DNA of 64,000 nucleotides from Sediminibacterium sp. (GCA_965206685.1 OZ242223.1:1557906-1621905); one strand, 5' to 3'; positions 57,303 to 63,315 are shown, counted from the first letter of the stretch. Notes: generated by a model from the sequence alone, not told the origin. Numbers and translations are program-made.

Positions 57303-57565
57303 GGTTTGGATGGTTTTGTAGCCGCAAATATAAAGCTAACGATTGTTAGGATTGTTATTTAAATGGAAAATTTTATTCAGGTGTTTTTGGGGATGGACTT
57401 TGTGATCCCATCTCAGCTTCGTTGTGTCACTCACTTGTACTACGGTGCAGGGAGCAGCTTTCCGTTCTTGCGAAAGCATTTATAAAATAGGCCTTTGCAA
57501 ACGAACTGTATTTTAGATTGTATATTTAAGAATCGCAAGCAATTCTAAAATGACACAGGTACTAC

Positions 57566-58780
57566 ATGCCTAAACACGCTGATAAGTCGCAAGAAAACAA
57601 AAGCCAGGCTGTTGCCAACAATTTACCACAATTGCAAAGCAATGTTGAATCTTCTCTACAATTTGCAGATAAGAAACCGGTGGACCTTGCTCAACAAAAC
57701 TTGCAGGAGGGCATTAACAATAGTCCACGTGTGCAGCAATTGAAAGCCTATCAGGAAATGGCAAATAATAGTCTGCCGGTAAAACAACTTAGGGCCTACC
57801 AAATGATGGCAAACAATTTTACTTCTCAAACTGCACAGCGAAAAGACAATTTGGAAGAAGAACCATTACAAGGAAAATTTGAATCTATACAGAAAAAAGA
57901 AAAGAATATCGGCTTAGTTTATAATTTGGAAACAAAATTGCCCCCCCCTTCAGGTGGGAATTTCAATATTACTAATACTGAAGAAGACATTTCCACCAAT
58001 TCAAAAACGCTTCAAGCGAATGGGTTAATAATTATACAAAGAGTAAAAAAAATACCGCGACCTACCTTCACAAAAGAAGTTTTGACGGCAATAAAATTGA
58101 AACAAGGCCAGCATAGGCGACACATTGTTATGAGTAGCCGTATGCGAGAGGCAATATGGGCTTACCATATGTCAGAAGGCATATTACCTGCAGCAAAAAT
58201 TAGCAGAAGAAAAGAACTTCAAACTGTTGTTGGAATGGGTACACTTAGAAGTGAAATGGCCACTTTAACAGCCTTAGCGCATAATTCCATGGGTAATTTA
58301 TTTCCTGGAAAAGGATCTGAAAATACAGCCATTGGATTTGCAGTGAATCCACTTTATAATATTGCGCAAAGAATAGATGATAAAACACTCAATACCTACG
58401 ATAAAATCTTTAAAGCTGTTGAGGAATGGGATAATATGAATACTTTTGGATTTGCGTTAGTGTACAAGAAATTTTTAGGTGAGCTGATAAAGAATTGGTT
58501 AAAAGATAAAGAAAATCATGATAATGACATTGAAAATATAGCTTCAGCTATACAGGATTTTGCTTTCTCGTGTAGTTTTGATTTTGCATACATAGAAGAA
58601 GGAGATGGAGAACGAAAAAATCATGTGTTTCCTGACCATGTGGATAAAGATATTCAGGAAAAACTCTTAAGAGTAGCCACGACTCTTGAGGAAGTAATTC
58701 AAAATCCCAAAAATGATCACCAATTATACCCTGCATTAACATACTTATTACAAATATCAAAGAATAAACCTTCGCAATAA
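57566..58780 (+). CDS. Polymorphic-toxin-like protein: shared leader of about 125 aa plus an unrecognised C-terminal domain of about 280 aa
   Basis: The N-terminus is highly similar to 59424-60731 up to about ..IQKKEKNIGL. It lacks the HExxH domain. The C-terminal part contains QHRRHIV and HNSMGNLFPGKGSEN. Confidence 0.6.
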   Translation: MPKHADKSQENKSQAVANNLPQLQSNVESSLQFADKKPVDLAQQNLQEGINNSPRVQQLKAYQEMANNSLPVKQLRAYQMMANNFTSQTAQRKDNLEEEPLQGKFESIQKKEKNIGLVYNLETKLPPPSGGNFNITNTEEDISTNSKTLQANGLIIIQRVKKIPRPTFTKEVLTAIKLKQGQHRRHIVMSSRMREAIWAYHMSEGILPAAKISRRKELQTVVGMGTLRSEMATLTALAHNSMGNLFPGKGSENTAIGFAVNPLYNIAQRIDDKTLNTYDKIFKAVEEWDNMNTFGFALVYKKFLGELIKNWLKDKENHDNDIENIASAIQDFAFSCSFDFAYIEEGDGERKNHVFPDHVDKDIQEKLLRVATTLEEVIQNPKNDHQLYPALTYLLQISKNKPSQ

Positions 58781-58964
58781 CAGTATAAAAATATAACAAA
58801 GAATTAATGCCAATAAAACAACAGGCAAAAAGGCCTAAAATAAAAGTATTACTGTAAATCATGGAATCAACCACCCATCTAATCAAAAAAAGGACTCTGC
58901 ACTCTCCGCAGAATCTAATTTTAATTCTCCCCTAGTCTACTCTTAATTCTCCGCATGGTGTCCT

Positions 58965-59240
58965 AAAAAAGTTCCTCGCAGATGTCTCTAATAGTGGACT
59001 CTGCGAATTCGGAGCACATAACGCCGACTTATTAAAAATAGTTATTTTGAACTACTATATTCGGTATTTCTATCCAGACTCCATTTCGAAAAAATAAAAA
59101 GTTCTGTCAGGTTTTATTGTGTCTTGCTGTGATTGATAAATTCTATTCATATCAAAAATCAGGCTGTCGATTATCTTTTGTGATTTGTGAATCAAAAAAG
59201 ACTTTCTATGTTTTTTTGAAACCTTGTTTTTCGAATTGTG
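58965..59240. repeat. Island repeat R1 (degenerate hairpin plus the 3' stump of a minus-strand gene)
   Basis: Aligns by eye with 61365-61645 (ttcctcgcagatgtctct..ggactctgcgaattcg..; ttgtgtctt.ctgtgattgataaattctattcatatca.aaatcaggct.tcgattatctttt). Confidence 0.8.
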
Positions 59241-59249
59241 TTTTTCCAT
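59124..59249 (-). pseudogene. Truncated 3' fragment of a paralogue of the 61526-62368 gene
   Basis: The minus-strand translation ...KSQKIIDSLIFDMNRIYQSQ matches the C-terminus KSQKIIDSLISDMNRIYQSQ of the intact gene. The stop is mutated (TAA to CAA), and only about 40 homologous codons remain. Confidence 0.6.
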
Positions 59250-59423
59250 TTCCCGTTCTGGTTACGTCAGTGCTGTGTTTCTTCGGGTCACTCATTTATG
59301 CTACTTCATATGGCACAAGTCTCTCCTATTTCGAAAGCATTTAAAAAAAAGGGGCTTTGCGTATTAGCTATTTTTAGTTGTATATTTAAGCTGCAAGCAA
59401 TTTTAAAATGACACCTGTATAGC

Positions 59424-61645: not shown

Positions 61646-62368
61646 TTTTGCGCTGTCTCCATTAATTGAATCACCGTATAAAATCCGTAGATCCGAAATC
61701 CGTTTTCTAAATTGTTCCAGTTGACCAATTAAAAAGGTTTTTGATTCTGAATCTTTTACGCCTGTAATAGTTAATCCCGAGGATGAAACTTTCGCTGTGG
61801 GCTCAGAAGAGCCTGGAGTTTGCTTAAAAAAGAGTCCATATATTGAATTAACTTGGTTACGTAAATCAGACACAGCATACTCCAAATTTTGCTGCCGAGT
61901 TATCACCTTATTTATATCTGCATCAGTAGCCTGGTTCTTTTGTAATTCCTTAATCGTCTTAGTATTTTCATACAAAAGATTCATTTGGTCAGTCATTTTC
62001 TCTAATAGTCTTATTACCAGATCATAGTTCGCAGCATTTGGAGGTGTAATGGGTACATCGGGTTTTGTTAACTCGTTCATTTTAGAAATATAACTTTCAT
62101 AGGCTTTTATCTTTGCATTTTGAATGTTGCTATCCCTGAAATTTTCATAGCGCATATGTAAACTATCTTTTACTCTGGCTAATTCCATATTTTTTAATTC
62201 TTTCTCCTTTAATTCATTGGCTTGAAAATAAAAAAGAACAGGTATGGCAAATGAAACCGCTGCCAATGCAAAAAACTTTCCTTTTTTCTGTATTTTTTCC
62301 AGGTTCTTATTCGGCTCTATTGTACTAATAATATTACCGGCTGGAAATTCATTTTCAGCATTACTCAT
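61526..62368 (-). CDS. Hypothetical single-pass membrane protein with a long coiled-coil-like region
   Basis: One TM helix (FFALAAVSFAIPVLFYF), then a heptad-like charged sequence. No known motif recognised. Confidence 0.5.
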   Translation of the reverse strand: MSNAENEFPAGNIISTIEPNKNLEKIQKKGKFFALAAVSFAIPVLFYFQANELKEKELKNMELARVKDSLHMRYENFRDSNIQNAKIKAYESYISKMNELTKPDVPITPPNAANYDLVIRLLEKMTDQMNLLYENTKTIKELQKNQATDADINKVITRQQNLEYAVSDLRNQVNSIYGLFFKQTPGSSEPTAKVSSSGLTITGVKDSESKTFLIGQLEQFRKRISDLRILYGDSINGDSAKTTIRKTRRQKNIENLFLIDKSQKIIDSLISDMNRIYQSQ

Positions 62369-62777
62369 ATTGTAGGGTTTCGTTTATTTTTTCTTTTATC
62401 TTCTCCATTAATACTTTTTGCAGTTCTTTTTCATTGAGACTGCTGTTTTTAAAAAGTTCAATTTTGCTTATTTGAAAATTATTTATTAGAGAATTCCAAT
62501 AAGAAATTTTTCTTGTTGATAATAAATCCGCCTGGGTGTTATAATAGACAAATGCAAAAATTGGCCCGAAACCCACCCCGGCACCAAAACTTGTTATTAA
62601 TTCAAGTATTGTTAGATGGCTACTGCCGTATTTTACTAAAAGAAGAACTGTTACTAGTCCAATAAAAGCCGCACCAAAAACGCATAACCATTTTTTTCTT
62701 CTTAATTCCTCATCTTCTATTTCAATGTCTCTTAAGGTCTCAAGAATATCTTTATAAGTGTGTATCGAATAGTTCAT
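62361..62777 (-). CDS. Hypothetical small 2-TM membrane protein
   Basis: Two hydrophobic helices (WLCVFGAAFIGLVTVLLLV; FGAGVGFGPIFAFVYY). Its 3' end overlaps the downstream gene by 8 nt, which suggests an operon. ATG at 62777 preferred over the TTG at 62807. Confidence 0.5.
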   Translation of the reverse strand: MNYSIHTYKDILETLRDIEIEDEELRRKKWLCVFGAAFIGLVTVLLLVKYGSSHLTILELITSFGAGVGFGPIFAFVYYNTQADLLSTRKISYWNSLINNFQISKIELFKNSSLNEKELQKVLMEKIKEKINETLQYE

Positions 62778-62902
62778 GATCTTTAATTGATTAGTTGAAA
62801 AATACAAAACATGGATTTCTAAAAAATGGGAAAAATCCCGTTTTTATTACAAGTTTTATTCTTTATACATTTAATTCTGCTCAGAGCCTGGTTTTACGTC
62901 AG

Positions 62903-63035
62903 TTTCTCACAGATATCTCTCGATAGAGGACTCTGCGAATTCGAAGCTCTTACCCCCCCCACTGTTTGCAAATGTTTATTTTGAAATACTAAGCGCAGAG
63001 TCCCTATCGGAGATTCTGCGGAGAACTCATTTCGT
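62903..63035. repeat. Island repeat R3 (hairpin part only)
   Basis: ctctcgatagaggactctgcg (62917-62937) pairs with cgcagagtccctatcggagat (62994-63014). Confidence 0.8.
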
Positions 63036-63146
63036 CACTGCAAAGAACGAAACAGTCTGTGGGTTGGAGCATAGGGCAGCATACATTCTTTAATTCGGTA
63101 ATACCGCATAGCTCACCACAGATTGCTTCGTTCCTCGCAATGACGG
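63033..63146. repeat. Palindromic element with 30-nt arms
   Basis: cgtcactgcaaagaacgaaacagtctgtgg pairs with ccacagattgcttcgttcctcgcaatgacgg. Its termini are related to the 55980-56110 element. Confidence 0.7.
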
Positions 63147-63315
63147 TTCTTTTGCCATCAAGTCTACAAATTGTTGCTTAGAAAAGAAAATATAGCAGCC
63201 TTTTGTATCTTTATTCAGCAACGTTTAAACATGTTCGTTGTGAATAGCACCAAATAATTACAACCCACTACCCTTAGCAGAACGGCTATTATTTTACACA
63301 CTGTAAACAACCGTT

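Follow-up and report, generated by a model that had tools for sequence, protein, structure and literature searches.

What does the A+T-rich segment that lies near the right end of a 64,000-nucleotide (nt) stretch of DNA from Sediminibacterium sp. (GCA_965206685.1 OZ242223.1:1557906-1621905) encode, a new biological system or an assembly of elements of described kinds? The whole stretch is referred to here as the window, and all positions are counted on it. The segment, an island at positions 57303-63315, contains five open reading frames (ORFs), designated A to E, and had been singled out by a first-pass annotation as a candidate for an undescribed system in which leader-type toxins are linked to two small membrane proteins. 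We conclude that it is probably an orphan, tandem-duplicated pair of cargo toxins of the type associated with extracellular contractile injection systems (eCIS), one toxin being an RNase accompanied by its immunity protein and the other a form devoid of DUF4157, beside an unrelated and rare membrane operon. The observations that carry this conclusion are the domain architecture of the ORFs, the leader common to two of them, the similarity of one to barnase, the location of relatives of ORF A beside genes of contractile injection systems (CIS), and the absence of the island beside the acyl-CoA dehydrogenase gene (acd) in related genomes. The toxin part of the island is organized as follows.

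57420-57565, plus strand: upstream block of unit 1, 73% identical to 59290-59423.
57566-58780, plus strand: ORF A, 404 amino acids (aa), leader (aa 1-125) fused to a C-terminal domain of about 270 aa.
59290-59423, plus strand: upstream block of unit 2, 73% identical to the unit 1 block.
59424-60731, plus strand: ORF B, 435 aa, leader, DUF4157/eCIS_core domain (aa 117-182, HEAWH), linker, and putative barnase-like RNase (about aa 350-435).
60749-61177, plus strand: ORF C, 142 aa, acidic (pI 4.7), starting 17 nt past the stop codon of ORF B.

ORF A and ORF B displayed 74% identity over aa 1-125 and no similarity beyond this region. The shared N-terminal region, in which hydrophobic residues accounted for a fraction of 0.21-0.26, is predicted to be disordered. 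In the AlphaFold2 (AF2) model of ORF A, the overall predicted local distance difference test (pLDDT) score was 51, with values below 50 for aa 1-176 and of about 65-70 for the mostly helical C-terminal domain. In ORF B, the leader is followed by DUF4157 (PF13699, 34 bits for a gathering score of 22, E = 3.5e-8), whose HExxH motif reads HEAWH. A homologue search with ORF A retrieved about 30 proteins combining the leader and DUF4157 with differing C-termini, among them a DNase (PF14040), a deaminase (PF18785), a kinase (PF00069), and others without an assigned domain. The alignment of 15 leader proteins split directly after the segment ...LExEADVMG. Several features of polymorphic toxins are present, namely a conserved N-terminal region, unrelated C-termini across homologues, and a small gene, ORF C, downstream of ORF B. 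Judged by their alignments, the leader proteins look like members of a polymorphic toxin family.

The C-terminus of ORF B appears to be a barnase-like RNase. Its final 70 residues or so align with barnase, including the segments ...SNRIL... and ...HYKTFT.I, and comparison with a barnase sequence gave a Smith-Waterman score of 69 (z = 8.2) that was reached by none of 1000 shuffles. In this comparison, Glu73, Arg87, and His102 are retained at the corresponding positions of ORF B, and Arg83 is not; the catalytic residues of the barnase/N1/T1 superfamily are Glu, Arg, and His. A sequence search of the PDB with the C-terminus returned barnase as the sole matches, at an E value of 0.4. An immunity-like ORF had been proposed to follow the second toxin, and the properties of ORF C, which is small, acidic, weakly barstar-like, and located 17 nt downstream from ORF B, bear this out. 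ORF C had no match in the PDB, and its pairwise comparison with barstar was not significant; we tentatively regard it as an immunity-like, barstar-like protein. The arrangement resembles that of barnase and barstar in that the tail of ORF B aligns with barnase and a small acidic protein is encoded directly downstream. It differs in that the RNase is the C-terminal module of a 435-aa protein rather than a Sec-secreted enzyme, that Arg83 is not conserved in the alignment, and that ORF C is devoid of significant barstar similarity.

The C-terminal domain of ORF A (HRRHIVMSSRMR...HNSMGNLFPG...) is of a different kind. ORF A had no match in Pfam, NCBIfam, or PADLOC, its AF2 model had no match in the PDB by Foldseek at E ≤ 0.001, and a profile search of the PDB with the ORF A family was also negative. 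NCBIfam and PADLOC yielded no meaningful match for the other four ORFs of the island either. The domain was found in four further proteins (P0002, P0003, P0004, and P0005), which make up a small family, and is a candidate toxin domain. DUF4157 is present in P0002 and P0005 and absent from ORF A, P0003, and P0004. P0002, which carries DUF4157, is 46% identical to ORF A over 99% of the length of the latter. Relative to P0002 and P0005, about 85 aa corresponding to the DUF4157 core are missing from ORF A, in frame. A run of eight cytosines (ttgCCCCCCCCttc, 57941-57948) is located at the exact point where the core is lost by comparison with ORF B and P0002; it could be a deletion junction or a slippage-prone tract. 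ORF A is nonetheless an intact frame that keeps 65 of the 65 invariant positions of the family alignment, 64 of which are in the C-terminal domain. It has no obvious immunity gene.

Relatives of ORF A connect the locus to injection systems. P0002 adjoins genes for an AAA ATPase and a CIS_TMP (PF19268) tape-measure protein, together with further large genes of the cluster, and P0003 adjoins a PAAR gene and a Phage_base_V spike gene. DUF4157 is highly specific for eCIS and is located at the N-terminus of eCIS-associated toxins (EATs) (Geller et al., 2021, PMC8213781). The cargo proteins Cgo1 and Cgo2 of AlgoCIS, the eCIS of Algoriphagus machipongonensis, have a common disordered N-terminal domain (NTD) and DUF4157, differ in their C-terminal domains (CTDs), and fill the lumen of the tube (PMC8894135). 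Cargo loading requires the NTD, DUF4157 being dispensable (bioRxiv 10.64898/2026.05.27.728243). The island matches AlgoCIS in several respects: two cargo-type genes with similar NTDs and differing CTDs are present in one Bacteroidota genome, the central DUF4157 of Cgo1 and Cgo2 carries HExxH as does that of ORF B, and the DUF4157-less ORF A is a natural counterpart of the AlgoCIS deletion construct that lacked DUF4157 and was still loaded (bioRxiv 10.64898/2026.05.27.728243). The differences are that cgo1 and cgo2 form part of the AlgoCIS cluster but the 57 kb on one side of the island contain no CIS gene, that the CTDs are here barnase-like (ORF B) or unassigned (ORF A), that an immunity gene is present, and that loading of Cgo1 and Cgo2 was seen experimentally whereas ORF A and ORF B are putative cargo. 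Similarly, EATs have DUF4157 N-terminal to a variable toxin domain, as does ORF B; nuclease or RNase C-termini and occasional toxin-immunity pairs have been described among them, and many of their C-terminal domains are unannotated, as is that of ORF A (PMC8213781, PMC11297309). The present locus differs from these EATs in being remote or orphan, tandem-duplicated, and devoid of DUF4157 in one copy.

By this architecture, the locus appears to be a further example of the NTD-DUF4157-CTD cargo arrangement already described for eCIS and AlgoCIS rather than a new system. The proposal of an undescribed system was in this respect not upheld, the leader-type toxin belonging to a described class (PMC8213781, PMC8894135, bioRxiv 10.64898/2026.05.27.728243). 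By location and character, the N-terminal region of about 125 aa would correspond to the loading sequence with which the AAA+ ATPase of eCIS fills the inner tube. ORF B would follow the full NTD-DUF4157-CTD plan with a barnase-like RNase as its CTD, ORF C would be the immunity protein protecting the producer from ORF B, and ORF A would be a natural DUF4157-less form with a different CTD. The 5.26-Mb genome may encode, at another site, an eCIS into which both toxins are loaded and which delivers them. Cargo release would occur by lysis and be followed by degradation of RNA in a bacterial target.

Several observations weigh against assigning the toxins to eCIS, and ORF B and ORF C to the barnase and barstar families. 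The Pfam scores of the latter two proteins were below the gathering scores, at 16.1 bits for a threshold of 24 (E = 0.017) for ORF B and PF00545 (Ribonuclease), and at 17.3 bits for a threshold of 23.4 (E = 0.0046, profile positions 4-89 of 96) for ORF C and PF01337 (Barstar). No eCIS structural gene was detected in the 57 kb to the left of the island, and for 88% of the known EATs an eCIS operon is no more than ten genes away (Danov et al., 2024, PMC11297309), a proximity displayed by P0002 and P0003 but not by the island among the window ORFs that were scanned. Leader toxins P0013 and P0017 stand alone among housekeeping genes, and P0005 stands alone in a Bacteroidales-type DUF3987/DUF4248 region. 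DUF4157 is also found in some effectors of type VI secretion systems (T6SS) (PMC11297309, PMC8894135). A search for eCIS ATPases gave more than 8000 matches at E ≤ 1e-20, and none of the 120 matches listed was from the source genome. The Afp15/Alg15-type AAA ATPase of eCIS (positions 11515-12873 in locus L081) is so highly conserved, with identities of about 60% among over 100 Bacteroidota clusters and this number of matches, that it is a poor probe for a single genome in ranked match lists.

The same observations can be read as those of polymorphic toxins that are delivered otherwise, by a Bacteroidota T6SS or another pathway, in a genome devoid of eCIS. This explanation, which we consider unlikely, would fit the lack of eCIS genes in the 57 kb scanned and the occurrence of DUF4157 in T6SS effectors. 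The PAAR and Phage_base_V neighbors of P0003 are common to T6SS and eCIS, and the presence of an immunity gene suggests bacterial targets. However, P0002, the closest full-length relative of ORF A, adjoins the eCIS-specific CIS_TMP gene and the AAA ATPase gene, and the common NTD-DUF4157-CTD plan matches that of eCIS cargo loaded experimentally (PMC8894135; bioRxiv 10.64898/2026.05.27.728243). In addition, the window contains no gene for VgrG, PAAR, Hcp, or other core components of T6SS.

How two cargo-type genes came to lie in tandem can be approached from the layout of the island, whose remaining features are listed below.

58971-59086, no strand: R1, degenerate copy of a palindromic repeat of about 115 nt, 3' arm lost.
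59070-59249, minus strand: stump, 59 aa, 3' fragment of a D-like gene without transmembrane segment.
61375-61490, no strand: R2, between convergent genes C and D, folding less well than R3.
61526-62368, minus strand: D, 280 aa, N-terminal transmembrane segment (aa 30-50), then an all-helical, coiled-coil-like protein.
62361-62807, minus strand: E, 138 aa from the ATG at 62777 (deposited form P0041) or 148 aa from a TTG.
62903-63022, no strand: R3, best-preserved copy, upstream of E and 83% identical to R2.

The first-pass annotation had described the island as A+T-rich, as composed of two cassette units with three hairpin copies and a stump, and as devoid of visible eCIS, T6SS, or transposase genes, and each of these points was confirmed. 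With a G+C content of 0.363, the island is richer in A+T than any other 6-kb segment of the window, these segments having G+C contents of 0.397 to 0.425; the G+C content at third codon positions is 0.26-0.34 for its five genes and 0.36-0.52 for flanking genes. The portion of ORF B encoding DUF4157 and the RNase (59771-60731) is an exception, with an overall G+C content of 0.42-0.46. The unit 2 cassette is in this respect a compositional mosaic, since ORF C, like the rest of the island, is at 0.30-0.38. The ORFs were found at the positions initially proposed, and repeat alignments revealed two tandem units, the three copies of the palindrome, and, on the minus strand, a stump of the 3' end of gene D. 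The upstream block and leader of unit 1 (57420-57930) align with those of unit 2 (59290-59788) with 73% identity upstream and 85% in the coding part, and R plus the 3' end of D are repeated with 78-84% identity (58942-59249 and 61345-61652). The centers between these repeated blocks are unrelated. The upstream block of unit 1 contains a promoter-like sequence of the Bacteroidota type, TTTG...TAtaTTTa. Transposase, integrase, T6SS, and eCIS structural domains were detected neither in the five ORFs of the island nor in 42 other ORFs of the window, which cover positions 1-57 kb and the hydrolase gene on the right, where the window ends at 64000. These 42 ORFs are of the housekeeping type (e.g. 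dnaE, sodA, groEL, secDF, two resistance-nodulation-division (RND) pumps, methylmalonyl-CoA mutase, and several peptidases), which places the locus at a distance from any eCIS on one of its sides at least.

The stump was 84% identical, at the nucleotide level, to the 3' end of D (61494-61652), and the encoded peptide aligned with the final 45 residues or so of D (KSQKIIDSLIxDMNRIYQSQ), the stop codon of D being lost. A D-like gene was thus once present beside both units, which supports part of the first-pass annotation, where this was claimed for the membrane-gene pair. The tandem layout most likely results from a recombination or duplication event, to judge from these alignments, with a toxin-specific center that differs in one copy. 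The repeated segment would have spanned everything between the promoter block and a point within the 3' end of D, which accounts for the stump. One possibility is that a circularised fragment of a diverged relative entered by a single crossover; by a second route, an ancient tandem duplication would have had its center replaced later. Either route would generate the order promoter, leader, C-terminal domain of A, R1, and truncated D, followed by promoter, leader, DUF4157, RNase, immunity gene, R2, D, E, and R3. The stump implies that D was the neighbor of a toxin gene before the duplication event, which establishes linkage at one locus, not a shared function.

Polymorphic toxin loci, such as contact-dependent inhibition (CDI) loci and Rhs-type orphan arrays, swap C-terminal toxin and immunity modules. 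The island shares with these arrays a conserved N-terminal part, unrelated C-terminal toxins, an adjacent immunity gene, and tandem copies formed by recombination in conserved parts. In contrast to promoterless C-terminal orphans, both copies are here complete genes, each having a promoter and a leader, and the delivery module is an eCIS-type leader rather than Rhs, CdiA, or PAAR.

Some features of the layout would also be expected if the genes were decaying relics, orphan cargo genes whose injection machine has been lost or become separated from them, ORF A being a deletion derivative that is turning into a pseudogene. The missing DUF4157 core of ORF A and the cytosine run at the junction would fit this explanation, the stump and the degenerate R1 would reflect decay in unit 1, and no eCIS genes were seen near the locus. 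We nevertheless hold this explanation to be quite improbable, since the 404-aa frame of ORF A is intact and retains every family-invariant position, DUF4157-less forms recur (P0003 and P0004), DUF4157 is dispensable for loading (bioRxiv 10.64898/2026.05.27.728243), the promoter block is kept in both units, and neither ORF B nor ORF C is disrupted.

The membrane genes E and D were linked to the toxins by position, and they had been suspected to belong to the cassette. E, the first gene of the operon, encodes one clear and one weaker hydrophobic segment and overlaps D by 8 nt. Neither protein had a relative in Pfam, NCBIfam, or PADLOC. Profile searches of the PDB returned generic coiled-coil matches only for D and no match for E, and the AF2 model of D was all-helical (pLDDT 55). 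Exact-sequence look-ups of ORF B and D retrieved no entry, and a word-seeded homologue search with D retrieved only D itself. Small families were recovered for both proteins by an exhaustive HMMER search with the concatenated E and D sequences, comprising P0042 (57% identity), P0044, and P0047 for E, and P0043 (43% identity), P0045, P0046, P0049, and P0050 for D. An E-like gene was followed by a D-like gene in the five other contexts recovered (L088, positions 1571-2771; L089, 10001-11213; L090, 9592-10810; L091, 307-1343; and L093, 1-1107), the two genes overlapping in four of them. Because this order was found in all five contexts, E-D is a genuine conserved operon. The pair itself was the only feature common to these five loci: tblastn (E ≤ 1) detected no DUF4157, leader toxin, or barstar-like gene near E-D, R elements were absent, and no R-like repeat flanked the pair. 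Conversely, E-D and R were absent from six leader-toxin contexts. E-D is a real, rare, and conserved two-gene operon, self-contained and, at this locus, probably a mere neighbor of the toxins, their adjacency stemming from a local duplication at the synteny break beside acd. Co-occurrence of the membrane pair with DUF4157 or leader toxins was found nowhere else in the contexts recovered, an outcome that the first-pass annotation had itself named as refuting its proposal, and the proposal that the pair is part of the toxin cassette was not sustained.

The operon has features of its own. Of 1.84 billion representatives, no more than a handful of clusters at 50% identity contain it, in unrelated contexts; its A+T content exceeds that of the surrounding DNA in L088, L089, and L090; and in L090 it is located about 7 kb from an RT-Cas1/Cas2/Cas6b locus (RT, reverse transcriptase). 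Its behavior is that of a small, mobile accessory module. A phage-type lysis cassette of the holin/spanin kind was considered and rejected, as no lysin domain was encoded beside E-D in six contexts and neither family had a relative in viral contigs. A 945-aa neighbor of E-D in L090 and a 945-aa protein of the eCIS cluster in L081 have no similarity, and their equal length is a coincidence.

A link between the operon and the toxins could still have arisen in this lineage. E-D might have been recruited to an orphan cargo locus, to serve in lysis or release or to provide membrane-level immunity to toxin A, and recombination flanked by R might then have turned the locus into a toxin-switching site distant from the injection machine; we rate this scenario as very unlikely. 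The weakest proposal, that leader toxin, immunity gene, and E-D form one new functional system, in which E-D serves export or release or membrane immunity against toxin A, could draw on an adjacency older than the duplication, on the conservation of the operon, on the lack of an obvious immunity gene for ORF A, and on a loose analogy between E followed by D (a membrane anchor and a coiled coil) and holin/spanin pairs, eCIS release requiring lysis, but it is most improbable given that only the pair itself is common to the other E-D contexts, that leader toxins occur without it, that endolysin genes and viral relatives are missing, and that a single duplication event accounts for the stump.

Within the sequences scanned, the palindromes were confined to the island. 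The core 22-mer of R occurs three times in the 64 kb, in the island only, for zero occurrences expected by chance, and no copy of R is present in 1.3 Mb of related loci. R3 had the best fold, with -45/-51 kcal/mol and a z score of about -5. A search of Rfam with positions 56-64 kb yielded no family for R and returned only spurious microRNA matches, on a terminator palindrome at 56025-56066. Scanning of metagenomes with an R 20-mer gave one chance match, inside a gene of an unrelated contig of 50% G+C, which was discarded. Mobile elements, integron cassettes, and miniature inverted-repeat transposable elements were rejected as identities for R, as the 64 kb contain only three copies, all in the island, and no recombinase gene. 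The R palindromes are local repeats flanking E-D.

The status of the island in related genomes was assessed with 80 Chitinophagaceae loci retrieved via the acd protein (77-94% identity). The flanking genes are the following.

56148-57302, minus strand: acd, acyl-CoA dehydrogenase with Acyl-CoA_dh domains.
From 63316, plus strand: alpha/beta hydrolase.

No relative of ORFs A to E or of the hydrolase was found within 10 kb of acd in any of the 80 loci. In the closest relatives (L001, L002, L003, L005, and L008), synteny with the window extends from about 45 kb to the start of acd and ends exactly there, the far side of acd being variable among relatives. These observations establish that the island is an accessory, strain-specific variable segment at a synteny break beside acd, as the first-pass annotation had anticipated. 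Its location between acd and the hydrolase gene holds for this genome, where both genes flank it, but the hydrolase was ruled out as the syntenic partner of acd, since it neighbored acd in 0 of the 80 genomes. No right edge can be assigned to the island, given that the hydrolase gene did not adjoin acd ancestrally and that the window ends at 64000. Positions 57417-57446 match the upstream spacer of acd in L001, and the left edge is therefore located near 57420-57450.

This matching segment is a motif of about 30 nt (CCCATCTCAGCTTCGTTGTGTCACTCACTT), located at the same distance from acd in L001 (9872-9901). The motif also occurs at unrelated places in L015 (18432-18460) and L026 (12936-12961 and 2652-2673), with a weaker form in the upstream block of unit 2, and looks like a short dispersed intergenic motif. 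A second intergenic motif, of the CGTTCCTCGCAATGACGG type, is present in two 80%-identical copies on both sides of the block formed by acd and the island (63127-63156 and 56091-56120); it resembles a short palindromic repeat similar to repetitive extragenic palindromic (REP) sequences and yields spurious small ORFs (e.g. ...IASFLAMT). Beside acd, a 386-aa gene (54770-55930) without Pfam family is conserved in the closest relatives only (44-83% identity) and is a lineage-restricted conserved hypothetical gene. It is separated from acd by a 20-bp palindrome (56025-56066, 95% complementary) that is probably a bidirectional terminator. Farther to the left, two tandem paralogous RND efflux operons (33635-39261 and 39866-45466), each encoding OEP, an HlyD-type adaptor, and an AcrB-type pump, are followed by an OprB-type porin gene.

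Current concepts are unchanged by the locus. Two uncharacterised entities emerge from it, the C-terminal domain of ORF A as a candidate toxin domain and E-D as a rare membrane operon. For work on eCIS cargo, the locus is a clear natural example, with two cargo-type genes, one leader, and one gene devoid of DUF4157. If the genome does encode an eCIS, cargo can be encoded remotely from the injection machine and diversified by tandem cassette exchange. Remote encoding of cargo, if true, matters for the prediction of toxin repertoires and for the engineering of loading signals.

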